Positions 4,501-39,721 of a DNA stretch of 43,017 bases are shown one piece after another (within the stretch, counting starts at the first letter, position 1; each line of letters begins with the position of its first letter). The notes beneath the pieces are model-generated. The model saw only the letters and a program-made list of their open reading frames with translations. It did no database searches and was not told where the DNA came from. A program made the position numbers and the translations under genes. Source of the DNA: Enterobacteria phage phiJLA23; sequence record NC_047740.1, one strand, 5' to 3'.

Positions 4501-5018
4501 ATATACTCAGTGTACGCTGAGCCATTAACTGATAAATCGATTGCATATTCACATGTTGTGCCATTTAAATCTCCATTCTCTTCTTGCTTAACGAGTCGAG
4601 GCCAGAACAGCTTGACTCGAATTGCTGATAGCTGACTGTTGTTGACTGCGATGATATAAGGTGTGTCATTATTGATTTCACGACTAACCTGAATCTCTGA
4701 AGCTGCGCCATCTAGTCCTGCGATGTAATCCTGCGACTGAGTACCAGACCTAAACTCTGCCGTAACACCTTCATAGTTGAATGAGTTATCCTGGTTTTGC
4801 ACCGGAACGTCAGCAAGGTAAACATCCTTGAGCGAGAAACTAGAATCAACCTCTCCATCAGCTACAGCCAGTAGCACCTTAATCTTGTTTAGTGAAATCA
4901 GGTTATCTTCTTGCTCTACAGGTGTGTGCGGCTTCTTGCTACCACCCTTGCTTCCATAAATCTTTGGCAAATCGGCCATATCATATAACCTCGTTGTTTG
5001 TTTAACCATTTGTGCCAT
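1593..5018 (-). CDS. Central tail fibre / host-specificity protein (lambda J-like)
   Basis: 1141 aa ORF as last gene of the tail module after I-like gene; size and position as for lambda J (established gene order). Confidence 0.8.
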   Translation of the reverse strand: MAQMVKQTTRLYDMADLPKIYGSKGGSKKPHTPVEQEDNLISLNKIKVLLAVADGEVDSSFSLKDVYLADVPVQNQDNSFNYEGVTAEFRSGTQSQDYIAGLDGAASEIQVSREINNDTPYIIAVNNSQLSAIRVKLFWPRLVKQEENGDLNGTTCEYAIDLSVNGSAYTEYIRGVANGKTTTGYDRSIRVNLPAEFSSALVRIRKLTPDSTNSTLVNGMQITTYQEVIDAKFRYPLTALVYVEFSSDLFPNGIPTIAIKKKWKLIRVPTNYNPETRAYSGTWNGTFKMAWSDNPAWVLYDLVVSQRYGLDQRELGVEIDKWGLYEAAQFCDQMVPDGKGGMEPRYTCNVVIQQKVEAYQLIRDICSIFRGLTFYDGEQIGIVVDRPRQPSYVFTNDNVVDGLFNRTFSSDKSLYTTANVQFDDEQNNYQQDVEPVFDLEATRRFGYNPVDLTAIGCVRRSEANRRGRWLLKTNLRSETVTFTTGLEGMIPMIGDVIAVNDQAWSSNYTLNLSGRIVEATGLQVFVPFAIDADPGDRILINKPDGSPEYRTIASVSADKLTLELNTAFSFTPQPDTVFAIDKQNLALQQYVVTGIQKANTDGEDSFQYSITAVQYDPNKYDEIDYGVNIDDRPTSIVDPDRILPPENITVTSYSKVVQGLSVETMVIGYDKVQYAKTYNVQWRKNNGNWINVPETANTEVDIEGIYAGIYDVRVRAVTDQKSVSAWSDITTVSLTGKIGEPSEPPVITASDDEVFGIRVKWGFPTDSADTAYTELQQVPDNGDGTYTPENASLLTLVPYPQYEYWHTTLPAGNVRWYRARIIDRIGNVSPWTDFVRGMASDDVSAIIGDIKVDIENSDGYKYLLQNAIDANTDIQNQAEAIIENALANDTDVRVMTKENLNRKAEYRQAVSLIADETQARVDALTQLKAQIDDEIVGQITTIETALATETEARATADTQLSSRLGDNEAALNQKLDSYATVEGVGVQYGVKLGLKYNGVEYGAGMSMELTGSGGNVRSQFIFDANRFAISNGISSGSGQWSLPFVVENNQVFIQSAVIQDGSITNAKIGNRIQSNNYVAGSAGWAIDKSGFAELSNATVRGSLYANNGNFAFNGTNNTVVINNNGITVNLPNGGRVVVGVW

Positions 5019-5023
5019 TCTAC

Positions 5024-5046
5024 ACTAAATAAAAAACCCGCACTAG
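5024..5046 (-). terminator. Intergenic hairpin + T-run between I-like and J-like genes (possible attenuator)
   Basis: Minus strand reads cccgcctagtgcggg then tttttt; a TAGAAT -10-like box and the J start follow. Confidence 0.4.
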
Positions 5047-5059
5047 GCGGGTTGTGATT

Positions 5060-5626
5060 TTAACTAATGTCTTCTGCATACGAGCCTGCACTAAATACAG
5101 CACCACCAACAGTTCGATATCCATAAGGTAAGCAAACGGGGTTGCCTGCCGCAATTGTATTTACTGCTGAGCCGAATGCGTATGATGCTCGGTTGCTTGT
5201 TTGTGATGCCTGGTCATTCAATCCTGTAGCTTGTGGCGCCAATAACTGAGCCACTCCACCAGCAAGGAGGCCTACAGCCACTGGCAAAAGAACAGGAAAG
5301 AAGTATGATGCCACCAAAAGTACACCTCCAAGGATGGTCTGGAATAAGCCGCCAGATTTTCGACCTTGCGGGATTGGCATAATCCTAATTTCACGCACAG
5401 TCTCAAGGTCATTAATCTTGTGCTCGTTAACATTCTTACCGTCAACGAATACAGCAAACCTTGTGTTCTGGCCCACATGGCTACGCATGAAATCTTTAAA
5501 CTCAGGGATGTTTACAGACAGCGCCCGCATTGCCTCTGGAACCGTTTTAACGCAAAGCTTATGTAGCTTTCCAAACCTCCTGCCCAAACCTAATCCCAAC
5601 TTAACATCAATCACGTTCTGGGTCAT
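5060..5626 (-). CDS. Tail assembly protein (lambda I-like)
   Basis: RBS ggagg 9 nt before ATG 5626 (longest ORF starts 5635); hydrophobic Gly/Ala-rich C-terminus; follows K-like gene with short overlap. Confidence 0.6.
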   Translation of the reverse strand: MTQNVIDVKLGLGLGRRFGKLHKLCVKTVPEAMRALSVNIPEFKDFMRSHVGQNTRFAVFVDGKNVNEHKINDLETVREIRIMPIPQGRKSGGLFQTILGGVLLVASYFFPVLLPVAVGLLAGGVAQLLAPQATGLNDQASQTSNRASYAFGSAVNTIAAGNPVCLPYGYRTVGGAVFSAGSYAEDIS

Positions 5627-6353
5627 AACCAGCATCCTCCGGTAAATCTTTATGCCTTACGATTCGTACAGTCCGCTCACGATAGTAATCGCCGTACAAA
5701 TCAACCTTACTCATCTTACCATATAAATGGTGTAGGATTTTATTGTCACCAATGTATATGGCGGCGTGGTTGGTCTTCTCGCTCTGAATCTGCATCATAA
5801 CCATTGAGCCAATTGGAATATCATTGCTTCTGACTAATTCGAACCCTTCTAACTCCCAATTATCATCGTAGATATTGTCAGGGTATTCATTGGTCCACCA
5901 CTGATAATCTACGCGATAATCGTTAAGCTTAACACCGTGTAGCTTGTGAAATTCCATAACCAAACCCCAGCAGTCGAAGCTGCCAAGACCCCATGGGCGA
6001 CCAGCAAGCGGCATCTTTTCTGGCTGAATAATCCGCAAGTCCCCTTCAGGTATAGAAACAATAACATAAGGCAGATCGCACTCATTGCAGCTGCAAATAT
6101 CAGCTGCGCTTGGCCTAGTAGTAGCGCCATCACCAGTATGTGAATGTACAACATAAACAACGCTTTCATTGTCCGAAATCTCCATGAATTCCATTGGGTC
6201 GAGAATGAATGATTGCTCTGGTGTTTTGGATACGTTGGTAATCCTGTGATACTTCTGCGCCATCCCCTTCTGAGTTACAACCCCGCAAGATTCTTGCGGG
6301 TAAACCTCGTTGGCGTGGCGAAATATTTCGATCTTAACTTTAGGCGTTAACAT
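5607..6353 (-). CDS. Tail assembly protein (lambda K-like): JAB/MPN metalloprotease + NlpC/P60 domains
   Basis: JAMM-like motif HSHTGDGATTRPSAAD; C-terminal Cys/His region (FDCWGLV ... HHLYG) consistent with NlpC/P60; RBS aaggag; between L-like and I-like genes. Confidence 0.75.
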   Translation of the reverse strand: MLTPKVKIEIFRHANEVYPQESCGVVTQKGMAQKYHRITNVSKTPEQSFILDPMEFMEISDNESVVYVVHSHTGDGATTRPSAADICSCNECDLPYVIVSIPEGDLRIIQPEKMPLAGRPWGLGSFDCWGLVMEFHKLHGVKLNDYRVDYQWWTNEYPDNIYDDNWELEGFELVRSNDIPIGSMVMMQIQSEKTNHAAIYIGDNKILHHLYGKMSKVDLYGDYYRERTVRIVRHKDLPEDAGYDPERD

Positions 6354-6362
6354 TACCTCTCC

Positions 6363-7127
6363 TTAGTTTTGGTTGGCTTTAGCTTGCAGGCTTGCAGCAG
6401 CGCAACCACCAAAGTCTAACTGATTATTTTCTCCGAACCTTAGCTTGCACGCACGAACCGTTCCGGCACAGAAGTCTTGCGATGGGTCAGTCACAGGCGC
6501 GTTGTCCTTATCGAAATATCGAGTACCCATGTAGTTACATCCATTACCTGATCGGTAAAGCCCTCGCTGTGCCCAATAACAAACAGACTGAACAAGTCGC
6601 GCTGGAATGTAAATACCATCCATATCCATTGGGCTAGTTAGTTCAAATGAGGCTGTATTGTAATCAACCTGCTTAGGTCGCTCAATGAAGTAAACCAGCT
6701 TGCGGTAATCCCCATCAGCAATGGTGCCATCTTCGTTAATATTCTCGCGGAGGGTGATCCAGATAGTAACTTTGGCCTGAACAAGTCCATTGTAAGTGCG
6801 GATAAGCGCAGATATATTCTGGTCTACGTTGGATACGACTAGAGTCACCTTATTTGCCTTGCCATCAGAGGTCATATTGATCCCCTGAATACCGAAAGGC
6901 CTTGCTCCGTACTCTTGCCCACGGAAGGTAATTGTCTTTGCTGGTAGTGGCTGGCCTGTTGATTGCGCCATCATGATTTCTTCTGGGGTATAGCTGATAT
7001 TCTCCCCATGAAATCGGTAAACTGGTGCACCAAACTTTCCTCCGTCAACCTCAATCAACGTGACAACCTCACCAGGGAACAAGCTTTGTAATTGATTCTC
7101 AAACTTAGTGCTCAATGGCGTAGCCAT
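6363..7127 (-). CDS. Minor tail protein (lambda L-like)
   Basis: 254 aa between M-like and K-like genes; C-terminal cysteine cluster as in the Fe-S-binding C-terminus of lambda gpL. Confidence 0.7.
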   Translation of the reverse strand: MATPLSTKFENQLQSLFPGEVVTLIEVDGGKFGAPVYRFHGENISYTPEEIMMAQSTGQPLPAKTITFRGQEYGARPFGIQGINMTSDGKANKVTLVVSNVDQNISALIRTYNGLVQAKVTIWITLRENINEDGTIADGDYRKLVYFIERPKQVDYNTASFELTSPMDMDGIYIPARLVQSVCYWAQRGLYRSGNGCNYMGTRYFDKDNAPVTDPSQDFCAGTVRACKLRFGENNQLDFGGCAAASLQAKANQN

Positions 7128-7150
7128 AATATTTCTCCAGTAANTCTGTT

Positions 7151-7165
7151 TAGCAATTAGTGCTA
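7151..7165 (-). promoter_or_regulatory. Isolated copy of palindrome TAGCA-N5-TGCTA at the M/L junction
   Basis: ttagcaattagtgctattt; overlaps M-like stop codon and lies about 23 nt before L start; no -10/leader module. Possible operator. Confidence 0.4.
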
Positions 7166-7166
7166 T

Positions 7167-7517
7167 TTACTGCATAGATGTGAAAACTTCTACAAACTGC
7201 ATTGATACAGTCTGCACGTCCTTGGTGTTTGGTGTGACGCTGATACTGTCCTGAGCTACAACAAACAGCTTAAGCTCACCCTGCGGAGTTGTCCATGCGA
7301 ACGGGGTGATGATGTGAGCAAAGCAGAAGTCCAACACTTCCTTCCAGCTGGTGTTGGTGTAGGTCATGTTGTAGGTGCGCTTATTGGTCCTGTAACCTCC
7401 GGTTCCGCGCTGCTCGTAGCCATTGCCAAAGCTAACAACCCTAACGTTATTCGCGTTAGTAAAGTTTGCTGATCCACCTTGAATTTGGGTACACCATGTA
7501 AAAGTATCTAATGCCAT
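7167..7517 (-). CDS. Minor tail protein (lambda M-like)
   Basis: 116 aa directly after tape measure gene; RBS aagga 6 nt before ATG. Confidence 0.6.
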   Translation of the reverse strand: MALDTFTWCTQIQGGSANFTNANNVRVVSFGNGYEQRGTGGYRTNKRTYNMTYTNTSWKEVLDFCFAHIITPFAWTTPQGELKLFVVAQDSISVTPNTKDVQTVSMQFVEVFTSMQ

Positions 7518-7527
7518 TTAAAATCCT

Positions 7528-7546
7528 TAGGGGCCGAAGCCCCATT
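7528..7546 (-). terminator. Intergenic hairpin ggggccgaagcccc between tape measure and M-like genes
   Basis: Perfect 5-bp GC stem, 4-nt loop; identical hairpin recurs at 39701-39714. Weak T-tract, so attenuator or RNA-stability element rather than strong terminator. Confidence 0.35.
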
Positions 7547-7548
7547 TA

Positions 7549-10500
7549 TTAACTATAACCTCGCAAGAACTGGTAAGCCGTTCCGCCCTGCTGGAAGGAC
7601 TGAGTAATCTCTTCCGCGATGATAACCCTGATACCAGATTCTAACTGTTTAGCGTCATTACCGCCACCACCGCCAAGACCTGTCTGAACGGTAACATTCA
7701 CTCCACCAACATTAACGTTACTTCCACCAACAAGCCCGCCAGTCGCATAGCCAGGACCAGCACCAACCACTCCACCATTTGCGTATCCGCGCATTAACTT
7801 ATAAAGGTTATCAACGCCAATCCTTGAGGTTGCCTCCTTCGTAAAGACGAATTCACCTTTATGCACCGTGCCAGCTGGCTCGTACTTACCACCGTTTCCA
7901 GTATAACCGCCAGAAGCGAAACCAAATGCGCTACCAATAGAGCCAATTGCACCACCACTACCGCCAAAACTGGAGATGGTTGATTCAATCGCCTTAATTA
8001 AAAGTAGCTGCGTTGCAATGCGTGCAATCTGCTTCAGAATCGATGCGGTAAACTCACGGAAGCTAGCTTCTCCAGTAGTTACCAGGTTTGTTATCTGGTC
8101 AGTCAATCCGTTAAAGGCACTCATGGCTAGCTCGGAACCAATCTGATTAAAGTTTGCCAATTCATCAGCCGTCTCAGCAAACGCAGATTTAACGCCAGCC
8201 AGCCAGTTACCACGTAATGCATCTTCCTGATTGTAGAAATTCTGACGAGCCTGAAGTAAAGCCTGGAAGTCAGTGTCATCTACGGAGCCACCTTTAGAAA
8301 TTTGCTGGGCTTCTAGCGCCGCCAACTCACGCCGCCTTTCCGCTTCGCGCTGAGATAATCCTGCTCCAACACTAATTGATGCCGCTTCAGCGTTAATCTG
8401 CCGAGTCTTCTTGATGTTGTCATCAAGAAGTTTATTGGCCCTTTCTTGCAGCACAATCTGGTCGCCAATCTCAGCCTTCTCGCGAGCAAGTCCTAAGATT
8501 TTATCCTGCTGCAACAGTAATGATCGCTGTTGCTTTGTGATGGTTCCGTCTGCAAGCCTTTCATTAAGGATTGCAAACTTAGCTTCCTCCGCAAAAAGCT
8601 GCTTGCGTTCGTTACTGATAACATCACTAATCTGGCGGTGCTCCTGAAGAACCTTAAGCTGAGCCTGAAGAGCTAGAACGCCAGACTCATAACTTATAGT
8701 CAAATCCCTCTCTTCTTTTGCTCCAGATTTTGTCTTTTTACTTCTCTCCTCAATTGCTTTAATCTCATCGGCCAAAGCCTTTCTTCTTGATTCTGAATCT
8801 CTATCAGAAGTTCCAGTTTGACTTTCTGAACCCTCTCCAACACTCAAGTAACCAGTCTCGCCCCTGCGAACCCTTGCATCCCTATCAGCGATAGATTTAG
8901 CTAGCCTTATGTTTTCCTTTTCTATTGCGTCATTATCCTTCCTTAGTTGTTCGGCTATTCCATTACCAACGCCAGATGCTCCTGGTATCTTTTGTAACGC
9001 CTCTATTCCGCGTATTACGAAATCATTTATTAGCTTGTCGCCAGTGCCAATTATCAGTCTTATTTGCTCAATAGTCGCAGCTATAACGTCAGTAAATAGG
9101 TTTAGAGCTCCTATAGTCCTGTCACCTATAGCATCCCATGTGTCTGAAACGAACTTACGGAAATCGCCCCAAGCCAATTCAAGAGGTGTAAGCGAGCCTT
9201 CAATCTGCTTTGTAACTGACTCATTTCTAGCTGCAAATATTTCTAAAGCTGCTGTTACTGCTGCTGTTTGCCCTTCCGTTTCTTTTAGGTTGTTAACTAG
9301 GGTCAACTGCCCTTCGCTAAGAAAGTTAAATTGCTTATCTAACTCTATCAGCCCCTTAACTGGATCTTTTGCTATCTTATCAAAGTCAGATATTATTGAT
9401 TCCGCAGACCTTGAACTAACAGCTGAAAGGTTAGCAACAGACTTAGCGATTAAGTTAATCTGACTAACAGTAAGCCTTCCGTTTGATACTAGCGACTGGT
9501 AAATGTCACCAATAGAACCTTTTGTTGCCCTTGATGTTTCATTTAGCTGATCAGCGTAATCCTTGATAGCGGCAACTGATAAAGTCGACGACCTTCCAGT
9601 TTCAATTATTGCGTTATTAAGTTGCCTAACCTCAATAAATGAGTCGTAAGCGGCTTTACCAAGAACAGCTAATGAAGCAACTATCGCGCCACCAAATATA
9701 GTTGCAGCACGACCAAACCTTAAGATAGCCTCATCACCAAGAGTCTTAACATCAGCAAATAAACTTCTCAGCTCTCCTATTGATGATACATAATCTATAA
9801 CTGCACCTTGCGCAGCTGATAATGTATTTGAAAATCCACCAAATGAATCTGTAATCTGCGGTATTTGCTGGGTAAGCACCATAAATAAAGGCATACCGTT
9901 AGCAATCGAGCTGGTGATATCATTGATCTGTACAGGAAGGAACCTTAAGGCCTGATTGTACTGACCTGCCGATATCCCAGCCGCCTGAAACGCCCTACTT
10001 TGATTTGCTATAGCGTTAGTATTGTTACTTGATGCCTGTGTTATTCTATCTATTATTGGTGCTGCCTGATCGCTAACTCCAAGCTGTGCCGCCCTTAACT
10101 TTAAGAACTCATCCCTACTTAATGTCGCTGCATCAGCCTGCGCTTGAAGCGACCTAATAAATGATTGCGCTTGCCTCTCAGCGGACTCTTTATTTTTTGC
10201 AGCTTCTATAGCCGCCCTACCCTCCTCAGTTAATGCTGACCTAGACCTTATTAACCTATTTGTTTGCGTTTCTAATGCTTCACCAAGCCTGTAAAACTCA
10301 GCCTCTGGAACAACCCCTGCGGAGAAGGCCTTATCAAGAGAACTTGCTGCATCTTGAAGTTTTCGCAATTTTGAAGCTGTTGGATCAATTGCAGACTGAA
10401 GCGACTGAAAAGCACTTCTCTGCTCAGAAAGATACCTTGCAGTGTCGCGAGCCTGATTCTTCGCAACCAGCTCAGCATTAACGAACTCGCTAACTCCAGC

Positions 10501-10602
10501 TGCCGCCTGTTCATTGGCACGTTTAAATTCTTGCAGGGACTTTGTGCCCTGGTCAACCTGGCGAACGTCAACGCCAAGTGTGATACCTGCAAATTCTGCC
10601 AT
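7549..10602 (-). CDS. Tail tape measure protein
   Basis: About 1017 aa, Ala/Gln/Glu-rich helical body with Gly-rich C-terminal region; RBS ggagg 4 nt before ATG 10602 (ORF track starts at 10629 on a non-ATG codon). Confidence 0.85.
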   Translation of the reverse strand: MAEFAGITLGVDVRQVDQGTKSLQEFKRANEQAAAGVSEFVNAELVAKNQARDTARYLSEQRSAFQSLQSAIDPTASKLRKLQDAASSLDKAFSAGVVPEAEFYRLGEALETQTNRLIRSRSALTEEGRAAIEAAKNKESAERQAQSFIRSLQAQADAATLSRDEFLKLRAAQLGVSDQAAPIIDRITQASSNNTNAIANQSRAFQAAGISAGQYNQALRFLPVQINDITSSIANGMPLFMVLTQQIPQITDSFGGFSNTLSAAQGAVIDYVSSIGELRSLFADVKTLGDEAILRFGRAATIFGGAIVASLAVLGKAAYDSFIEVRQLNNAIIETGRSSTLSVAAIKDYADQLNETSRATKGSIGDIYQSLVSNGRLTVSQINLIAKSVANLSAVSSRSAESIISDFDKIAKDPVKGLIELDKQFNFLSEGQLTLVNNLKETEGQTAAVTAALEIFAARNESVTKQIEGSLTPLELAWGDFRKFVSDTWDAIGDRTIGALNLFTDVIAATIEQIRLIIGTGDKLINDFVIRGIEALQKIPGASGVGNGIAEQLRKDNDAIEKENIRLAKSIADRDARVRRGETGYLSVGEGSESQTGTSDRDSESRRKALADEIKAIEERSKKTKSGAKEERDLTISYESGVLALQAQLKVLQEHRQISDVISNERKQLFAEEAKFAILNERLADGTITKQQRSLLLQQDKILGLAREKAEIGDQIVLQERANKLLDDNIKKTRQINAEAASISVGAGLSQREAERRRELAALEAQQISKGGSVDDTDFQALLQARQNFYNQEDALRGNWLAGVKSAFAETADELANFNQIGSELAMSAFNGLTDQITNLVTTGEASFREFTASILKQIARIATQLLLIKAIESTISSFGGSGGAIGSIGSAFGFASGGYTGNGGKYEPAGTVHKGEFVFTKEATSRIGVDNLYKLMRGYANGGVVGAGPGYATGGLVGGSNVNVGGVNVTVQTGLGGGGGNDAKQLESGIRVIIAEEITQSFQQGGTAYQFLRGYS

Positions 10603-10616
10603 GTAACCTCCATAAA

Positions 10617-10640
10617 AAAACCTCCACAAAGGGAGGTTAT
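10617..10640 (-). terminator. Hairpin + U-run between chaperone GT and tape measure genes
   Basis: Minus strand reads cctccctttgtggagg then ttttttt, immediately before the tape measure RBS. Confidence 0.4.
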
Positions 10641-10996
10641 TTTTGCCTTACTTGCATCATCTCAAGTGCTTTGCACTCCAGTATTCGCAAGTCATTTAAA
10701 GTCATCTCTTTGTCCTTGACATTATACACATCAAAGAGGAAAGGGAGTACTGAATAATCTATTCCGGTAGCGCCGTTCATACCTACACGCCATTGAGTTG
10801 AAGCTGCCTGATAAACAGTCCATGCCAGCATCATGTCATCATCGAAGTGTAACTCCTCTGGCTCCTCATCTTCGTAATCGGAACGCCGCATTCCAATGGC
10901 TTCAAGTTCGGCGTCCGTTGGCTCTCTTTGATACTGTAGATATACTGCGCGCTTTAGACCTTTGCGCGCTGGCCCGCCAGAGCTTGCATGTAAGCA
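10637..10996 (-). CDS. Tail assembly chaperone T portion (-1 frame extension of G; G-T fusion by programmed frameshift)
   Basis: The -1 frame is open from 10996, overlapping the last 14 codons of G, to stop at 10637; conserved G/GT arrangement before the tape measure gene; candidate slip site GCA AAG G. Confidence 0.55.
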   Translation of the reverse strand, partial: CLHASSGGPARKGLKRAVYLQYQREPTDAELEAIGMRRSDYEDEEPEELHFDDDMMLAWTVYQAASTQWRVGMNGATGIDYSVLPFLFDVYNVKDKEMTLNDLRILECKALEMMQVRQK

Positions 10997-11268
10997 TTAG
11001 TCAGTGCCAGAACGGATGCGGGGAACAGAGATACCAGCTCTTCGATGTTCTCGTCGTTAAATTCTTCTTCAAGGTTCCAGCCGCTGCAAATCTCTTTAAC
11101 AAAGTCAAAATCCTTAAGGCCTTCGGTCTGGAATACTTCCTGAATCTCCTTAGCCTTACGGTGCTTGGCATTGAAGATAACCTCAGCTTCCTCGCCGTTG
11201 ATCATCTGGAACTTAACCGGAAGCTTGAAATCAGGGAGCGCGCCTAATTTTAATTTGAATTTCGCCAT
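10954..11268 (-). CDS. Tail assembly chaperone (lambda G-like)
   Basis: 104 aa acidic protein between major tail and tape measure genes; RBS gagagga; downstream -1 frame open. Confidence 0.65.
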   Translation of the reverse strand: MAKFKLKLGALPDFKLPVKFQMINGEEAEVIFNAKHRKAKEIQEVFQTEGLKDFDFVKEICSGWNLEEEFNDENIEELVSLFPASVLALTNAYMQALAGQRAKV

Positions 11269-11301
11269 TTAAATAATCCTCTCGTGTTTGTTTGAGTTGA
11301 A

Positions 11302-11336
11302 ATTATAACATAAAAAAAGCCCCTGTGAAGGGGCTT
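11302..11336 (-). terminator. Terminator after major tail gene (hairpin gcccctgtgaaggggc, T7) followed by TATAAT -10-like box
   Basis: Minus strand: gccccttcacaggggc ttttttt atgt TATAAT, then RBS and G start. Confidence 0.6.
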
Positions 11337-11341
11337 GATTG

Positions 11342-11992
11342 TTATGCAGCCAGGAAGCTATAGCGTCCACGTACCGTAATTGCTACGGATACAGTTTCGA
11401 TCTCGTTAACGGAAACGTTTGGAGTTTCGTTAAACGCGATAGTGCCAGTCCAAAGTCGAACTTCGCCAGCTTTAGGAACGTATGCACGAATCGCAATCAG
11501 CGCGCCAGACTCGTCGTAGTTACGGAGTACCGGGTAGATCGGGTTGGTGAACTCGTGAGCAAACGTATAGGTCGTGTTTACCGCTGACTTATAAGTTGGA
11601 ATCTGCTGCTCACGGTCATCAGCCAGGCACTGATAAGTAACGAACTGCTGCTCTCCGCCATCAGTTGAAACGTCTTGAACACAAGGCATTTCATACCAGG
11701 TAAGAACCTTGTAGATCGATGCCGTTCCGCCAGCTGGGAACTGAAGCGGGTCAGTAGTGTCAATGCCTTCAACGGTAATTGTTGTATCCGTTGATGTAAC
11801 TACTCGCAACTGTTTCTCTGAAAGTTTAGACCATGAAGATGACTCAACAACAATGAAGTCACCAGCTGCGAAAGTTGAAGCGTCAGCTACCGTCATAACT
11901 GGCTGAGCTGCGTTAGTGATAGCCGTTACGGCTACCGATTCAGATTTAGAGCCTTGCAAAAAAATTTGTGTGCCATTGCTGAGATGGGCCAT
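11342..11992 (-). CDS. Major tail protein
   Basis: 216 aa immediately upstream of G/GT; strong RBS aaggag 6 nt before ATG; positional call. Confidence 0.65.
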   Translation of the reverse strand: MAHLSNGTQIFLQGSKSESVAVTAITNAAQPVMTVADASTFAAGDFIVVESSSWSKLSEKQLRVVTSTDTTITVEGIDTTDPLQFPAGGTASIYKVLTWYEMPCVQDVSTDGGEQQFVTYQCLADDREQQIPTYKSAVNTTYTFAHEFTNPIYPVLRNYDESGALIAIRAYVPKAGEVRLWTGTIAFNETPNVSVNEIETVSVAITVRGRYSFLAA

Positions 11993-12006
11993 GTAAATCT
12001 CCTTAA

Positions 12007-12405
12007 TTAATCCATACGTACGTAGAATCGGACAGGAATGAACCAGCCGGATTGCGATTTCACTGGAGGAAATACGGATCCGCCTTCATAAATGTATCCG
12101 CTGTCAAGCATTGTACCATCGGCGAAAGCTTCTGACAATCGCCCAGCCAATTGGCGAGGTCTATCAGTCCCCTCACCTGGTGAAAAGAATATAGAGACCT
12201 GAACCATGCCTACGTAATACCTGCATGTTCGCTGCAATCCCCATGTCACACTATCAACCTCCGTGTAATCAAACTTCAACCATGAACTTCCGTTTTTGGG
12301 TGGCGTGAATCCGCAGTTCTCGTAAGCAACTGGTAGACTGCCAGCAATATCAACTGCCGCATCACTAACCAGTTTCCTTGCTGCAACCATCATTTCATAG
12401 TGCAC
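12007..12405 (-). CDS. Putative tail terminator / completion protein
   Basis: In-frame GTG 12405 with strong SD aggagg 6 nt upstream (ORF track start 12522 overlaps previous gene by 128 nt); sits between connector genes and major tail gene. Confidence 0.4.
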   Translation of the reverse strand: MHYEMMVAARKLVSDAAVDIAGSLPVAYENCGFTPPKNGSSWLKFDYTEVDSVTWGLQRTCRYYVGMVQVSIFFSPGEGTDRPRQLAGRLSEAFADGTMLDSGYIYEGGSVFPPVKSQSGWFIPVRFYVRMD

Positions 12406-13582: not shown

Positions 13583-13626
13583 GTGATATCTCCATACAAT
13601 AAAGGACGCCGAAGCGCCCTTTTGGT

Positions 13627-13883: not shown

Positions 13884-13968
13884 TTGTTTCGATTGTTTGA
13901 TTATATCTCAATAGCTACCAAAATAGCACCCCGANGGGTGCTTCTTCCTTGTCAAAAAGTGCTATTAA
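13884..13968 (-). promoter_or_regulatory. Terminator (13917-13945) plus TATAAT -10 and conserved leader; degenerate palindrome over capsid stop
   Basis: Hairpin gcaccc-loop-gggtgc then T-run on minus strand after capsid stop; TATAAT; leader as in other composite promoters. Confidence 0.5.
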
Positions 13969-14950: not shown

Positions 14951-15000
14951 ATTATACACGAGATTTTAATTGGAACAATAGAGTAATCATTTCTCTATTG
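14951..15000 (-). promoter_or_regulatory. Late promoter candidate: 8-bp inverted repeat caatagag/ctctattg (14976-15000) upstream of consensus TATAAT (14951-14956)
   Basis: Perfect TATAAT hexamer about 30 nt before capsid start; no recognisable -35, IR occupies that position. Confidence 0.4.
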
Positions 15001-15003
15001 ATT

Positions 15004-15823
15004 TTATGCATCAAGCCTTACAACTTCTATACACAGGTCTTGATTGTCGCTCACAACATAACCGACTGTAAATAGATTTATTGTTACTCTCCACGCCGTT
15101 CCTGTTGTGGTTTCATAAAAGCTAAAAACATATGGCCTTATTCTTTGAAATTCACCAATGCCAGTAACCAATGCTGTTCCAGTTACGGAAGATGAAGATA
15201 TTGCTGTCCTTACTGTTGTATTGAAGTAGTTATCTGTATTATTGAAGCCCTCAATATTACCTCTTATGTTCCTGGCAGTGCTTCCCTCATCAATCCAGGC
15301 TCTAATGCTAAAAGCANTTGGNGAATCAAGCCTTATACCACCGAGNNCNCNCCNNTCNTCGCCTTGAGGACCTNGCGGCCCCGCAGGGCCTGCCGGACCA
15401 GTGTCGACCTTGNGGCCNTGCNGCACCAGCTNCGCCTGCGGGACCTGCTGGACCNTGCGGACCAACCGGACCTTGTGGACCTGCTTCACCTGAACCCCCT
15501 CCTTCATCACTTGCAAAATCACCTTTAGCCAGAGCTGAAATATAAGCGCCATCCTCGAAGTGAGCATTGCCAAACCTTTTCCAGCCCTGCGCTAGATATC
15601 GGTTAACCCTGTTAACTAGCCCCTGAATTGTGGTGTCGGATGTAACCATGAAGTCTTCAACGTTGTTTGTTGTTCCTTTCGCCATCTTCATGCCAAAGAG
15701 GGTGCCGCTTAGCATCTGCACATCACCATATGGCTGAAAGCCTGATGACATCATCACTTTTACGTTCCTGGCTAAGATTTCAGGTGAATTCCCTACTGCC
15801 ATAGCAATTTCTGTGTAAGCCAT
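15004..15823 (-). CDS. Structural protein with collagen-like Gly-X-Y repeats (ORF disrupted by N-run 15300-15500)
   Basis: RBS aggaga 5 nt before ATG 15823; translation contains GEAGPQGPVGPxGPAGPAG; two overlapping ORFs (15326-15823, 15004-15573) rejoin if the N-rich tract is corrected. Confidence 0.5.
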
Positions 15824-15874
15824 TTCTATCTCCTGATTGGTTAATGATCATTGACAGTCTAACAGAAAACAGGC

Positions 15875-15900
15875 AATAAAAAACCTCCCGAAGGAGGTTT
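15875..15900 (-). terminator. Rho-independent terminator (hairpin aacctcccgaaggaggtt + T-run)
   Basis: Minus strand: aacctccttcgggaggtt then tttttatt, after the 155-aa gene. Confidence 0.6.
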
Positions 15901-16395: not shown

Positions 16396-17505
16396 TTATT
16401 TTTTCAATTTAGCGAGGCGAGCGCGCGGGTCTAATTTCTTAGGCGCGTCGGCTGCGTCAGATTTATCCGCAGCAGCAACTGCTTTGCGGGCTTCGGCCAT
16501 TTTATCACTATCTTTAGCGATATCAAAGGCTGCATCGATGTATGCGTCAGATTTCTCAGCAACTTCAATACCAGACACTTCTTTAACGTAAGCAACTTTG
16601 ATTGCTTTAGCATCCAGGCCATCACATTTAACGCCAGCTTCTGCGGCAACTGCGACCAGGGCAGCCATTTCGTCAGCATCAGTCTTAGCTTTGGCTAAAG
16701 CAGCTTCTATTTCAGCGGGGATGCCATCAACTTTAGCTTTCAGTGCGTCGCGCTCAGCTTCCAGAGTGTCAGCTTTAGCTTTAGCCTGCTCCGCATCAGC
16801 CTTAACAGCTTCGATATGCTTAGCAACTTCCGGGGCGATTTCGAACTCCTGTTCGCCATCGAGTTTAATCTTAATCATCAATTTATCCTCTTTATTTGAT
16901 TGAACGGTATCAGTATACGGGTTTTCCTGTTCCGCGTCCAGATTGAGTTTAGCAATACCTGCGCGACCTTTATATACGAGTGCGATATGATTAACAACGA
17001 TATTCGTCTGTAGCGCATCAAAGCGTACCCAATCAGCAGGAATCTCATCCTGGCTTGCGTACTCTCCATCAAGCTTGTACTCACCCGTTTCATTACTACC
17101 CCAGCCAGGAGACTCAATGTCAACAGTGTTGTAGCCAACAGAGAGCTCACCAGCAACGCCAGACTTGGCCTTCTCAATTGCTTCCTTGTCGTAAACGGTA
17201 AGAGGAACAATCACTGCCGAGTCCTGACGCATTGCTGACCCAGATACAGAACCAACAACCACCTCTTTAGCATTTTCAGAGTTTACAACCACGTGACCAA
17301 GAGTAAGCGGCTTACCCTGGTAACTTTGCAGCGAATCGGCTTTAAAAACCTCTGAAGCCGGACGGAACTCTCGGCGCTCTGAACCATCTGGCATATAGTA
17401 GGTTTGTACACCTACGCGAGCAACCACTGGGGTGTCCACGAGAAAACCGTTCTCATCGAAACGGGCTTTTACCTTGGCGCTATCATAACGCATTTTACTC
17501 TTCAT
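16396..17505 (-). CDS. Prohead protease / scaffolding protein
   Basis: Globular N-terminal domain then long Ala/Lys/Glu-rich coiled-coil-like C-terminus; between head morphogenesis and capsid genes. Confidence 0.55.
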   Translation of the reverse strand: MKSKMRYDSAKVKARFDENGFLVDTPVVARVGVQTYYMPDGSERREFRPASEVFKADSLQSYQGKPLTLGHVVVNSENAKEVVVGSVSGSAMRQDSAVIVPLTVYDKEAIEKAKSGVAGELSVGYNTVDIESPGWGSNETGEYKLDGEYASQDEIPADWVRFDALQTNIVVNHIALVYKGRAGIAKLNLDAEQENPYTDTVQSNKEDKLMIKIKLDGEQEFEIAPEVAKHIEAVKADAEQAKAKADTLEAERDALKAKVDGIPAEIEAALAKAKTDADEMAALVAVAAEAGVKCDGLDAKAIKVAYVKEVSGIEVAEKSDAYIDAAFDIAKDSDKMAEARKAVAAADKSDAADAPKKLDPRARLAKLKK

Positions 17506-19494: not shown

Positions 19495-19700
19495 TAATTT
19501 CTCCAATAAAAACGCCCCTGGTAAGGGGCAGTTTATCATGATTACTTAACTCCAGCTAGCCTCATTAACCTAGNTCTTGGGTCGNNCNNNNNNNNNANNC
19601 CGTCTGNNTNNNCTTTNNANNTTTTNTANTCNATAAAAAAGCCCCTGAGTAAGGGGCAGTTTATCATGATTACTTAACTCCAGCTAGCCTCATTAACCTA
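19495..19700. repeat. Tandem duplicated segment (~19507-19575 and ~19631-19700) around an N-run: probable assembly artifact containing the terminase terminator
   Basis: Two near-identical copies of the large terminase 3' end plus terminator hairpin, separated by Ns 19575-19635. Confidence 0.7.
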
Positions 19701-21238: not shown

Positions 21239-21750
21239 AGTTTATCCATTACAGAAGCCAGAGCAGACTTCATTGCTTCCTCGTCGTTTACTACAGCATT
21301 AGAAGCGTTGTTGATGTTAACCTCTTGCGGCTTATCGATGCCAAGGTCTTTGCTAATAAGTCCAGGGTTGACGATGTTGTTAACACCCAACTGGTACTTC
21401 TGTTCAAAGATAACTGAGTCGACGAACTCCATAACTTCATCGAATCCTGGTGATGAGCGCCATTTGCTAATAGCATTATGACCAACGCCGCAGAAAAGCT
21501 GGAATCCAGTTATCGTAAATACCCTCGGCTTGTGAACAAGGTTTTCCGTTACGACACCCTGAAAGCTTGCTGTCTCGATAGCTTTAATTGCCTGCTCTTC
21601 AGCCCAGCTGAAATACCTTACAGCCATGTCGAATACCTGCTCGGGAGTGTATCTGTGGTTAATCTTAAGATTGGCAATGTCGCCATACTTCTTATTGTAA
21701 AGCTCCTTGAAGTTACCAATCTTCTGGTGAATTTTTTTCTCTTCTGACAT
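21235..21750 (-). CDS. Terminase small subunit (putative)
   Basis: 171 aa immediately upstream of and coupled to large terminase; strong RBS aggagg. Confidence 0.6.
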   Translation of the reverse strand: MSEEKKIHQKIGNFKELYNKKYGDIANLKINHRYTPEQVFDMAVRYFSWAEEQAIKAIETASFQGVVTENLVHKPRVFTITGFQLFCGVGHNAISKWRSSPGFDEVMEFVDSVIFEQKYQLGVNNIVNPGLISKDLGIDKPQEVNINNASNAVVNDEEAMKSALASVMDKL

Positions 21751-21776
21751 TTGATATTCCTCCTGTTTTAAAAGTC

Positions 21777-21821
21777 ATTGTACCATGACTATGGACGAAA
21801 AAAAGCCCTCACAAGGAGGGC
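21777..21821 (-). promoter_or_regulatory. Terminator hairpin (21805-21821, T7) followed by TACAAT -10-like box (21777-21782) upstream of small terminase
   Basis: gccctccttgtgagggc ttttttt, about 15 nt, TACAAT, about 12 nt, aggagg, ATG. Confidence 0.5.
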
Positions 21822-21849
21822 AAAGTACTGCATTGCGAGATGACCAATC

Positions 21850-22035
21850 TCAAACGAGGGATACTTTATCAACGCTGACTTTGTGGACTGTCAGGTCAAT
21901 CTTAAATGCTGCCTTTGCGGCTGCAACTGCTTCTTCAGGGCTTTTAGCAATGAACCTACCTTCGTAGGATTGCTGGCAAGATTTGCATTGCCGACCCATT
22001 AGGCGGGAAGTTAAACGGACTTCGTAGTTATTCAC
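21850..22035 (-). CDS. Hypothetical protein (61 aa, CxxC)
   Basis: ORF between tRNA and terminase terminator; weak RBS. Confidence 0.4.
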   Translation of the reverse strand: MNNYEVRLTSRLMGRQCKSCQQSYEGRFIAKSPEEAVAAAKAAFKIDLTVHKVSVDKVSLV

Positions 22036-22051
22036 TAGGATGCTCCATGTT

Positions 22052-22127
22052 TGGTGTTCCGCACTGGACTCGAACCAGTAACTGAGACTTAGGAGGTCTC
22101 TGCGTTATCCTGTTACGCCAGCAGAAC
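22052..22127 (-). tRNA. tRNA-Arg (anticodon CCU), CCA encoded
   Basis: Manual cloverleaf: acceptor GTTCTGC/GCGGAAC (one G-U), U8, D-stem GCGT/ACGC with A14 G18 G19, anticodon stem GAGAC/GTCTC, loop CTCCTAA, T-arm ACTGG-TTCGAGT-CCAGT, discriminator A, CCA. Confidence 0.7.
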
Positions 22128-23466: not shown

Positions 23467-23700
23467 ACTGAAATAAATATCACGNTNCTCACCACGCTNC
23501 TTTCGAAGTTCATAAGCCTTATTAAGCGACTCAATAGCTTCATCAAGGTCTGTTAANANGTCCTTGTGCCCACGCANNCCNCNNANGCGNGNNAACNCAN
23601 CNCGCTCAACAATAAGTACCATACCCTCATCAGCAAGGCATTCGGTGTCGAATCCGTGATTTTCGTGAAAGTAAACTGCCTCATCAACTTCAATTATGCN
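23467..23700 (-). CDS. Probable gene obscured by N-run (hypothetical protein)
   Basis: Long open frame on minus strand through 23485-23700; stop codon lies inside the palindrome copy; start unresolved. Confidence 0.25.
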
Positions 23701-24974: not shown

Positions 24975-25237
24975 TATTTAGTCTCCTTAATCATTTCCTG
25001 ATATGCGTTAATCATAGCTACCGCACCCTTCAGTTCATCTCCACTCATTCCTGCTACGCTGGGGAAAGCTTAAGTAGCCTAGCTTTAAACTCGCTTACCG
25101 CTTTCTCCCTTATTGGACTGTTTGTCTTAGCTCGNGGTTNCNTNNNNACNACGCNGAANTNCATNCAGAAGANNATTTTCTGTGCTGCGATGGACTTGGC
25201 TGCGTCGAATGTTTACCATTTATTTGAGGATTGAGAT

Positions 25238-26717: not shown

Positions 26718-26757
26718 ATAATCAAGCCCCTTCGGGGGCATTTAGAGAGAGATGATA

Positions 26758-30451: not shown

Positions 30452-30520
30452 TTTGTATCCTCTCGTTTTGTTTTGATGGAGTAAATATACCCCCTCTTTT
30501 NATTTGTNTTTTANTTNGTG
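30452..30520 (-). promoter_or_regulatory. Composite early promoter (TATATTTAC, leader CATCAAAACAAAAC; palindrome degraded by Ns)
   Basis: Module order conserved; upstream half-site region contains Ns. Confidence 0.35.
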
Positions 30521-30843
30521 CTAGTTCNTGTNTNCNTTNTNNNTNNNNTTTCTAGCGTATTCATCATCTCCTCAAGCTTCTCTGCATCAATAGAGGACTT
30601 AACCCATTGCAACTTCACATTGCCATCATTATCAACAAGGCTAGATACACCTTTAACCATGTAGCCCTGAGGAATTAGGTTACTCACATCGCGACCGTGA
30701 CCATCCCCAGCCTTAGCCAACTTGCTGCGACGCAGCTCTACGTTACGAATATTCATACCGTACTTCTCTGCGATTGCCTTGTTAGTCATACCGTTAGCCA
30801 GTTCTTGCTTTAACTCTTCGTTGGTGATTTTAGCTATAGACAT
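30511..30843 (-). CDS. Putative HTH DNA-binding protein (3' end uncertain, runs into N-run)
   Basis: N-terminal helix-turn-helix-like segment TNKAIAEKYGMNIRNVELRRSKL; ORF passes through Ns 30490-30550. Confidence 0.45.
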   Translation of the reverse strand: MSIAKITNEELKQELANGMTNKAIAEKYGMNIRNVELRRSKLAKAGDGHGRDVSNLIPQGYMVKGVSSLVDNDGNVKLQWVKSSIDAEKLEEMMNTLEXXXXXXTXTSXX

Positions 30844-36429: not shown

Positions 36430-36473
36430 ACCCTCTTCGGAGGGTTTTTTATTGCATTTAATCTGATACAATA
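36430..36473 (+). promoter_or_regulatory. Terminator hairpin (ccctcttcggaggg 36431-36444, T6) followed by TACAAT -10-like box (36467-36472) upstream of lateral tail fibre gene
   Basis: Same hairpin-then-TACAAT layout as upstream of small terminase. Confidence 0.5.
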
Positions 36474-39220: not shown

Positions 39221-39246
39221 AAAAGCCCCGAAAGGGGCTTTATCTT
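39221..39246. terminator. Bidirectional terminator (hairpin gccccgaaaggggc 39227-39240)
   Basis: Identical hairpin to 1571-1584; A-run upstream, T-rich downstream, between convergent genes. Confidence 0.7.
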
Positions 39247-39251
39247 TTGCA

Positions 39252-39680
39252 TTAAAACGGAATATCATCTTCATCACTAAATCGGCTTTGTTGCTGCGGC
39301 TGCTGTCTCTGTTGCTGTTGAGCTTGTTGTCGCTGCTGCTGCTGTTCTGATTCACCTCCTCGCTGACTAAACATCAATCGAGGATTCTGCAACTCAAGCG
39401 TAATATATGTCTTGCCATTATGTTCGCGCTCATTAACCGCTAATGAATCGCCGCTCACAGAGATAACTTTTCCTTCCTGAAATGCTTCGTCATACCAGCT
39501 AATTTGCGCCTCGCTAGCAAAGAAGGTAGCTCGATAATTACTATACTTACGCTCTCCATCTCGTGTTTTATAAGATTCGCTCATTTCGATAGCGTACATC
39601 TTCCAGTTACCCTTGGCGTTCTGACCATCTTTACTGAACAGCGTCTTACCAACCATATCTAAGAATTTGTCCCAATTCAT
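39252..39680 (-). CDS. Single-stranded DNA-binding protein (SSB)
   Basis: OB-fold-like N-terminus, Gln-rich linker, canonical acidic C-terminal tail ending DEDDIPF. Confidence 0.8.
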   Translation of the reverse strand: MNWDKFLDMVGKTLFSKDGQNAKGNWKMYAIEMSESYKTRDGERKYSNYRATFFASEAQISWYDEAFQEGKVISVSGDSLAVNEREHNGKTYITLELQNPRLMFSQRGGESEQQQQRQQAQQQQRQQPQQQSRFSDEDDIPF

Positions 39681-39721
39681 TTCATATCTCGTTTGATTTT
39701 GGGGCCGAAGCCCCGTTTAGT

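Follow-up and report, generated by a model that had tools for sequence, protein, structure and literature searches.

Mapping all 75 genes of Escherichia phage C119 onto the window, which is the whole stretch of 43,017 nucleotides of Enterobacteria phage phiJLA23 (NC_047740.1), put terS at 21750 and J at 1593, the two ends of a late block that lies on the minus strand. Bases 5000–12000 were 99.9–100% identical to C119 and phiKP26, and on this sequence comparison the window is a T1-like coliphage of Rogunavirus, Drexlerviridae, ~99.9% identical to C119. Several segments of C119 were absent from the window, and its 230 N were mostly clustered at the missing-segment junctions. No phage RNA polymerase, sigma factor or antiterminator was found in the C119 gene annotation, and a search of the window against Rfam at the gathering threshold returned a tRNA-Arg as the sole match and no other RNA family. 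Transcript data for any T1-like phage were not found in the searchable literature. Gene junctions were compared among C119, AKS96, Sf12, JulesPiccard, EC3a, ACG-M12, T1 and TLS, covering four Drexlerviridae subfamilies.

Hairpins were catalogued as perfect stems of at least 5 bp with at least 4 G-C pairs and a loop of 3–8 nt. The non-coding DNA (4,260 nt) contained 17 such hairpins versus 0.85 ± 0.93 in shuffles, a roughly 20-fold enrichment, whereas the coding DNA contained 22 versus 22.9 ± 4.2. As only the intergenic hairpins were above chance, they were regarded as real features and the intragenic ones as chance occurrences. A C(UUCG)G core was present in nine intergenic hairpins, with UUCG on the sense strand in 9/9 co-directional cases, and this invariable sense-strand placement indicates selection at the RNA level. 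Single-sequence RNA folding placed the hairpins in the minimum-free-energy fold with non-significant shuffle z-scores of merely -0.7 to -1.2, a test that is uninformative here because dinucleotide shuffles preserve G and C runs. Matches in generic terminator scans were enriched (35 vs 16.7 expected and 24 vs 15.3 expected).

Most of the intergenic GC hairpins are predicted to be canonical intrinsic terminators at fixed junctions of the late block, with a GC stem of 5–8 bp followed by a sense-strand U-run. T-tail scores split the hairpins cleanly, with 2.6–5.3 for the canonical terminators, a range that holds for the ten of the late region (all intergenic, dG -9 to -12.4), versus 0.12–1.47 for three hairpins that lack a U-run. 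The combination of a GC stem-loop and a sense-strand U-run downstream of a gene was found at 1569, 5035, 10619, 11317, 13602, 13925, 15881, 19514, 19641 and 21805.

Following the late block in its direction of transcription on the minus strand, the terminator before terS (21805–21821, within an element spanning 21777–21821) is followed by U7, 15 nt and then TGGTACAAT. One terminator lies directly after terL (19641–19657), in a 31–32-nt direct repeat with a second copy directly upstream of portal (19514–19529), which has a Shine-Dalgarno sequence next to it and 20 nt to the start codon; the terL/portal terminator is single-copy in C119, AKS96 and Sf12, versus two copies in the window. The gp02/gp03 terminator (15881–15900, within 15856–15900) is followed by TGtTAGACT (15856–15864), and that between major head and gp06 (13925–13942, within 13900–13942) by a TATAAT box (13900–13905). 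At gp06/gp07 (13602–13621), AAGGGCGCUUCGGCGUCCUU and then UAUUGUAUGGAG are directly followed by a Shine-Dalgarno sequence, and this terminator is annotated in T1, AKS96 and EC3a. The major tail/G terminator (11317–11336, within 11302–11336) overlaps the G promoter, and the AKS96 annotation likewise has an overlapping terminator and promoter at this junction. At T/tape measure (10619–10638) the TAA stop overlaps the 5' arm, and the hairpin is followed by U7 and the Shine-Dalgarno sequence GGAGG; four different stems were found at this junction among the relatives, each beginning at the TAA stop codon. The I/J terminator (5035–5053), AACCCGCCUAGUGCGGGUU followed by U6, is annotated in T1 and AKS96 and keeps its position in 8/8 genomes. 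On the plus strand, a terminator between primase and fibre (36430–36445, within 36430–36472) is followed by TGATACAAT (36464–36472).

At two convergent junctions the hairpin lacks a single orientation. The element at 1569–1586, between J (minus strand) and a membrane-protein gene (plus strand), consists of AAGCCCCGAAAGGGGCTT between an A-tract and a T-tract, and the element at 39222–39241, between fibre gp29 (plus strand) and SSB (minus strand), has the same core. Flanked by an A-tract and a T-tract on opposite sides, each copy of GCCCCGAAAGGGGC reads as a bidirectional terminator. AKS96 has a terminator annotated on both strands at the equivalent of the first, and the second site is so annotated in AKS96, T1 and EC3a. 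The relatives have GCCCC-type stems at both convergent junctions, the two stems being sometimes identical and sometimes different in one pair.

Across the 8 genomes from four subfamilies, a hairpin with a U-run was found at the same junctions with differing stems: before terS, between terL and portal, after gp02, after capsid, at gp06–gp07, major tail–G, T–tape measure, M–L and I–J, and after J. Upstream of terS alone, 35 distinct IMG/VR sequences contained 21 distinct stems. These junction elements are annotated as rho-independent terminators in the GenBank records of T1, AKS96 and EC3a. The initial annotation had placed hairpins with U-runs inside the late operon at GT/tape measure, I/J and tape measure/M; the first two are borne out, with T-tail scores of 4.97 (10619–10638) and 5.11 (5035–5053), and the third, with a score of 1.13, is not.

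This tape measure/M hairpin (7530–7543, minus strand, GGGGCUUCGGCCCC) is a 5-bp all-GC stem with a UUCG loop and a dG of -8.7 kcal/mol. It lies 5 nt past the TAATAA stops and 12 nt before the M start, and abuts the Shine-Dalgarno sequence AAGGA. It thus has the GC stem-loop of a terminator, and its sense strand continues as GGGGCUUCGGCCCC-UAAGGAUUUU without a U-run, for which reason the earlier reading of the element as a terminator or attenuator was abandoned (tail score 1.13 vs 2.6–5.3 in canonical terminators). TransTermHP, WebGeSTer and ARNold gave no terminator call for the tape measure–M hairpin in AKS96 or EC3a. Two further hairpins belong to the same class. The one between Erf and SSB (39701–39714, minus strand) has the 14-mer found at 7530 and a tail score of 0.12; an A-rich leader comes next, and the ssb start codon lies 20 nt away. 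The one between gp50 and the helicase gene (26726–26739, plus strand, GCCCCUUCGGGGGC) has a tail score of 1.47, lies 12 nt before the next start codon and is kept in C119 and AKS96. All three (7530, 26726 and 39701) have a 5-bp all-GC stem and a UUCG loop 12–20 nt before the next start, and all are C-G-closed, on the sense strand and between co-transcribed genes, as in C(UUCG)G intercistronic hairpins.

The Erf–SSB spacer was followed in 62 loci encoding SSB relatives, which gave 48 distinct Drexlerviridae spacers. MAFFT with RNAalifold on 49 Erf–SSB spacers gave zero pairs, with stems and loops of unequal length misaligned, and a per-locus hairpin search with control windows was used instead. 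A hairpin with dG ≤ -8 kcal/mol was present within 62 nt upstream of ssb in 42/48 distinct spacers and in 0/48 for each of two control windows. The 31 distinct hairpin sequences had mostly UUCG or GNRA-type tetraloops and lay 1–9 nt past the erf stop and 11–33 nt ahead of the start codon, and five or more of the following 8 nt were U in just 3/47. Tail scores were low in both orientations (median 0.55, and 1.31 for the antisense strand). On the low family-wide antisense median, a role for the U-less hairpins as antisense back-up terminators was rejected. Judged from this conservation and the missing U-tail, the Erf–SSB element is a family-wide conserved RNA hairpin and not a terminator, which is new here.

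The tape measure–M hairpin has a narrower distribution. Its occurrences are confined to Roguna- and Braunvirinae, in which 11 distinct sequences show both hairpin and UAAGGAUUUU flank unchanged, and for this invariance it offers no covariation. It is absent where the two genes abut or overlap, T1 and TLS being translationally coupled here, and ACG-M12 has an HNH cassette in its place. We infer its function by analogy with the Erf–SSB hairpin.

By this analogy, the cited hairpin is probably an mRNA-stabilising stem-loop. As a best guess, the U-less hairpins would be determinants of intercistronic mRNA stability or processing; they would block 3' exonucleases, or else, once the neighbouring A/U-rich leader had been cleaved, would protect the new 5' end as a hairpin. 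We see some, though limited, likelihood that the hairpins at 7530, 26726 and 39701 act on translation instead, each shielding the ribosome-binding site of the next gene from structure or terminating ribosomes upstream, and at ssb possibly nucleating an autoregulatory operator, as in T4 gene 32. Their placement would suit this, 1–9 nt past the stop and 11–33 nt before the start with a Shine-Dalgarno sequence and an unstructured A-rich leader adjoining, as would the translational coupling of tape measure and M in the hairpin-less T1 and TLS. However, the hairpin never takes in the Shine-Dalgarno sequence or the start codon, and the same kind of hairpin precedes three unrelated genes (M, helicase and SSB), which argues against a gene-specific operator.

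Downstream of the hairpins, -10 boxes had been proposed at small terminase, lateral fibre, capsid, G and J, and all five were present, each with an upstream TG; at capsid the hairpin upstream of the -10 is AT-rich and not GC-rich. The predicted terS late promoter has its -10 at 21777–21785 (minus strand, TGGTACAAT). Among 35 distinct relatives, TGn was found in 30 and a -10 of TATAAT, TAAAAT or TACAAT in 34, and the distance from stem to -10 was 21–23 nt in 28, which places the terminator U-run at the -35 position. The predicted lateral fibre gp29 promoter has its -10 at 36464–36472 (plus strand, TGATACAAT), with TG(A/C)TACAAT conserved in 7/7 genomes. At G (minus strand), the -10 at 11302–11310 (TGTTATAAT, TGtTATAAT) is separated by a 16-nt spacer from a -35 of TTCACA (11324–11329), which lies inside the hairpin loop; the promoter match is 11/12, with TG present.

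The predicted capsid promoter (14951–14979, minus strand) reads TTGTTC, 16 nt, gTGTATAAT, with the -10 box GTGTATAAT at 14951–14959, and CTCGTGTATAAT together with the upstream TTG is conserved in 6 Roguna- and Braunvirinae genomes. A further predicted promoter for the major tail gene (12110–12138, minus strand; TTGTCA, 17 nt, TGGTACAAT) lies within the tail-terminator gene, 123–127 nt upstream of the major tail start codon, with no hairpin; TGGTA(C/A)AAT and TTGnnn were present at this site in 8/8 genomes of 4 subfamilies.

The probable J promoter has its -10 at 5017–5024 (minus strand, TGTAGAAT, gTGTAGAAT), 14 nt past the terminator stem, where the box overlaps the annotated J ATG. Boxes were found at the same distance from the stem in T1 (cTGTATAAT) and TLS (aTGTACAAT), and as the J proteins of these phages start further downstream of the same box, the annotated J start is probably wrong; the real one would be the ATG at 4979–4977, 34 nt downstream, with a Shine-Dalgarno sequence at 4988–4994. 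A rejection of the J promoter, with TAGAAT lying over the annotated start, was overturned by this comparison with T1 and TLS. At J and L of the same two phages, the hairpin loop contributes TTGCGC or TTGTGC, with a spacing of exactly 17 nt to the -10.

A TG at -15/-14, one base before the hexamer, was thus found at terS, fibre, G and the internal major tail promoter, while at J and capsid the TG directly abuts the -10 (TGTAnAAT), one base closer than in the canonical TGnTAnAAT. The boxes at terS, fibre and G are predicted extended -10 sigma-70 promoters (TGn-TAnAAT), in which the -35 would be replaced by the terminator U-run at some sites and embedded in the hairpin loop at others. The claim that these late promoters have no -35 does not stand as a general rule, given the TTCACA in the G loop (11/12), the loop hexamers at J and L of T1 and TLS, and the internal major tail promoter, which has both elements and no hairpin; it is also doubtful at capsid, where a conserved TTGnnn lies 16 nt upstream. 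What remains of -35 independence applies to terS and fibre, with the U-run in place of the -35 and a conserved TGn, and it does not imply special late machinery, because extended -10 promoters are a known sigma-70 class that needs no -35.

T4-type late promoters consist of a lone TATAAATA read by gp55, gp33 and the clamp. This type was rejected here, the boxes being TA(C/T/G)AAT after TG and not TATAAATA, and no sigma-like protein is annotated in C119, T1 or TLS. Generic promoter scans showed no enrichment (24 vs 29.7 expected and 37 vs 39.5 expected), so scanning a single genome for -35/-10 pairs is uninformative. Plain sigma-70 promoters at these sites would leave the delay of late expression unexplained, which counts against this reading.

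The distance from a terminator to the next start codon is 10–20 nt at portal, gp07 and tape measure, and also at L in C119 and AKS96, with a typical arrangement of UUUUUUAUUGGAGAAAU..AUG. As the space between U-run and start is too short for a promoter, portal, gp07, tape measure and L need read-through, which upholds the proposal of attenuation or read-through control for these terminators at most 20 nt upstream of essential-gene starts. The late-block terminators would accordingly be partial (leaky). They may reduce the transcription of genes that follow capsid and tail tube, whose products are needed in abundance, and give the upstream mRNAs a stable 3' end. Most stems begin 0–6 nt past a stop codon, so that a terminating ribosome may hinder hairpin formation and contribute to read-through. 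Each of the two most abundant proteins, capsid and major tail, has a predicted promoter of its own and a terminator immediately behind its gene, an arrangement that fits graded expression. The 5' arm of the T–tape measure stem (AACCUCC) is complementary to GGAGGUU, the Shine-Dalgarno sequence of tape measure, and could pair with it instead; an attenuator switch at this junction was rejected as a conserved mechanism, since the other stems of the relatives are without this complementarity.

We consider it probable, from the arrangement of the sequence elements, that the two hairpin classes and the host-type sigma-70 promoters make up T1-like terminator-bounded 'transcriptons'. The phage would use the host RNA polymerase, and its late block would be a chain of terminator-bounded transcription units. 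With about ten terminators in series, simple leakiness may not suffice. Factors or RNAs that make polymerase resistant to terminators are known from lambda (Q or N) and HK022 (put RNA), and an unrecognised phage factor or RNA of this kind could act in the late block, so that read-through would be regulated and not merely leaky and the hairpins would stop only unmodified (early or host) transcription. We regard this as unlikely. About ten terminator-like elements do lie in series in one co-directional block, several of them directly before essential genes, and many small genes of unknown function lie upstream of terS; but no antiterminator is annotated in C119, AKS96, T1 or TLS, no antitermination RNA was matched in Rfam, and predicted promoters at terS, capsid, gp06, major tail, G and J would re-supply transcription, so that no unit would have to cross more than one or two terminators.

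Terminator and promoter might also form one integrated unit for restarting polymerase, an idea that we hold to be rather improbable. Terminator stem and -10 keep a fixed distance, 21–23 nt at terS and fibre and 14 nt at J and L, and the -35 position is taken by the U-run or the hairpin loop. After intrinsic termination, the RNA polymerase of E. coli often remains on the DNA and can re-initiate nearby (PMC6978380, PMC6978322, PMC11364550), and through such retention the modules could recycle the same polymerase into the next late transcript. If this were true, the extended -10 would permit restart without a -35, and the late block would be a relay of short mRNAs in place of independent recruitment or read-through.

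Identical hairpins had been reported at distant sites, and both 14-mers do occur exactly twice in the window: GCCCCGAAAGGGGC at 1571 and 39225 (not 39227, as given in the initial annotation, which is 2 nt off) and GGGGCCGAAGCCCC at 7530 and 39701. Such repeats of GCCCCGAAAGGGGC and GGGGCCGAAGCCCC were seen in 0 of 100 dinucleotide shuffles. The 'reuse' of hairpins as a phenomenon needs no special explanation, because a null constrained to the shared C(UUCG)G core and GC-only stems already yields one identical UUCG pair (P = 0.49–0.76). The flanks of both identical pairs are unrelated. It is highly improbable that a short mobile or recombinogenic DNA element, for example a module-boundary sequence or the target of a homing-endonuclease cassette, was copied to give the identical hairpins, in place of independent selection as RNA structures. 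In its favour, HNH/moron cassettes have been inserted next to the hairpins of relatives (in ACG-M12 between tape measure and M, in C119 between the Erf hairpin and SSB), and the two convergent-junction terminators match each other in C119, in JulesPiccard and, with a different outer pair, in EC3a, which hints at homogenisation. Against it, in neither pair does identity extend beyond the stem, chance alone predicts one identical UUCG pair, the UUCG and GNRA loops lie invariably on the sense strand, as is not required of a DNA-level element, and the Erf–SSB and tape measure–M hairpins differ within JulesPiccard and EC3a.

The layout of hairpins and promoters is largely known, being already annotated in relatives and described for T1, and represents ordinary architecture; it is extended a little by the U-less hairpin kept family-wide at Erf–SSB, by the conservation of the TG and by the constant spacing of terminator and promoter. 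Separating true terminators from U-less hairpins of the stabiliser type aids the annotation and engineering of Drexlerviridae for phage therapy. Standard -35/-10 scans miss TGnTAcAAT, a conserved signature of the late promoters that in many cases keeps a constant distance to a terminator, and the probable mis-annotation of the J start was brought to light. The map of promoters and terminators makes the timing of late expression with host polymerase alone directly testable in T1-like phages.

Among known systems, phage T7 offers a parallel for read-through, as its native terminator is inefficient (PMC9157156). The comparison takes in T-phi and the intercistronic 3' hairpins of T7: like T7 with T-phi, the T1-like phages would have a leaky terminator after the most-needed structural gene (major capsid), with graded downstream expression. 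T7 differs in having its own RNA polymerase and RNase III sites, in contrast to the host polymerase and short hairpins of T1-like phages.

For the U-less hairpins the comparison is with phage T4, in whose intercistronic regions C(UUCG)G hairpins were reportedly described by Tuerk and colleagues in PNAS in 1988. Shared features are the very stable C-G-closed UUCG tetraloop, the sense-strand position, the short intercistronic spacers and the virulent coliphage setting, some hairpins being without a U-run; T4 belongs to an unrelated phage family. The promoters resemble the extended -10 (TGnTATAAT) sigma-70 promoters of E. coli, e.g. galP1: at terS, fibre gp29 and G a TG stands one base before a good -10, and the -35 is poor or absent. 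They differ in that here an upstream terminator, placed at a fixed distance, has its U-run in the -35 position.

The TLS paper reported no sigma-like protein and found only three promoters by a standard -35/-10 scan. In T1, the late region is described as consisting of terminator-flanked 'transcriptons' (Roberts et al. 2004, summarised in PMC11447400). The summarised T1 accounts do not mention that the TG is conserved, that terminator and -10 keep a fixed spacing or that a -35 lies in the loop, and the tape measure–M and Erf–SSB hairpins are not included in the annotations of T1, AKS96 and EC3a. T1 belongs to the same family as the window and shares its gene order, with rho-independent terminators at matching junctions and sigma-70-type promoters after some of them.

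A promoter-like repeat family of the form ATAGCAC-N3-TTG(C/T)TAAA was identified in the window, where ATAGCACNNNTTG with at most one mismatch was matched 16 times against 3.7 ± 2.1 expected, 11 of these matches being exact. Copies were located on the plus strand at 270, 25627, 26257 and 26455, and on the minus strand at 7166, 13965, 23464, 24430, 30998, 31684, 32566, 34962 and 40442; all 13 (the 11 exact and two with one mismatch) lie on the coding strand. The inverted repeat TAGCA-N5-TGCTA forms the core of the motif, and in the majority of copies a TATAGT, TATATT or TATAAT box is found ~21–23 nt 3' of it; the conserved leader CATCGAAACGAAA follows in most copies. A Shine-Dalgarno sequence and then the start codon come after the leader, with ~75 nt between motif and start in most copies, and several copies have a small hairpin within the 22-nt spacer of the unit.

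Hairpin-bearing spacers were the exact sites of HNH endonuclease cassettes in relatives, namely tape measure to M, Erf to SSB and capsid to gp06 (15346–15914 in L007, the ACG-M12 record; 21396–21955 and 3731–4373 in L001, the C119 record), and at least the ACG-M12 cassette carries an ATAGCAC-type promoter of its own. All three HNH endonuclease genes of C119, together with gp16, are absent from the window, which, at 43,017 bp compared to 47,319 bp for C119, lacks several segments of that genome; fibre gp03, the DNA repair exonuclease, the protease and the anti-repressor are partly absent. Junctions of the missing segments were placed near 7144, 13919/13920, 15340–15397, 17056–17165, 19584–19633, 23576–23594, 25139–25166, 30513–30559 and 39638–39655, and most of the 230 N in the window are grouped near them. 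Several genes are therefore truncated, as in collapsed or consensus-type sequence.

In the terL/portal interval, a direct repeat of 31–32 nt was found at 19514–19545 and 19641–19672, 127 nt apart and separated by an N-rich stretch. Each unit consists of the terL stop codon, 12 nt and a terminator hairpin, and the two copies differ by 1 nt in loop length. C119, AKS96 and Sf12 have a single copy, and Braunvirinae have an additional gene at this site; the repeat may be the scar of a cassette that was lost or collapsed. Upstream of gp70 and terS, a tRNA-Arg gene (22052–22127, minus strand) with anticodon CCT was detected using ARAGORN, and is annotated at the same site in relatives, with anticodon TCT in EC3a and JulesPiccard.

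Within the tail-terminator gene, an internal promoter, TTGTCA-17-TGGTACAAT (12110–12138, minus strand), was located 123–127 nt ahead of the major tail gene. All eight genomes compared have kept this promoter, as TGGTAAAAT in T1 and TLS, even though the proteins are just ~47–55% identical; this looks like combined coding and promoter constraint.

For J, the C119-style start (ATG 5018–5016, minus strand) has no Shine-Dalgarno sequence and is overlapped by a conserved -10 box. ATG 4979–4977 (minus strand) is preceded by a Shine-Dalgarno sequence, ACGAGGT, at 4988–4994 and matches the J N-termini of T1 and TLS (..GSKGGS.KPH). The start as annotated probably lies 13 codons upstream of the true one (region 4971–5024, minus strand).

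Between T and tape measure (10600–10639, minus strand), the 5' terminator arm AACCUCC can pair with the 3' arm or with the identical tape measure Shine-Dalgarno, GGAGGUU, 7 nt further on, as in the minimum-free-energy fold. The latter pairing is probably incidental, because relatives with other stems lack it. A programmed G-T frameshift is expected of tape-measure chaperone genes; in relatives' annotation G and T (10637–11268, minus strand) are separate ORFs with a 62-nt gap.

Returning to the ATAGCAC family, the centre of its palindrome would fall near -42, where a class II activator binds, and the Cro/YdaS-like HTH regulator of the phage (34975–35448) is a candidate binder. The same 21-nt repeat has been reported, with no function assigned, in TLS (PMC11447400).
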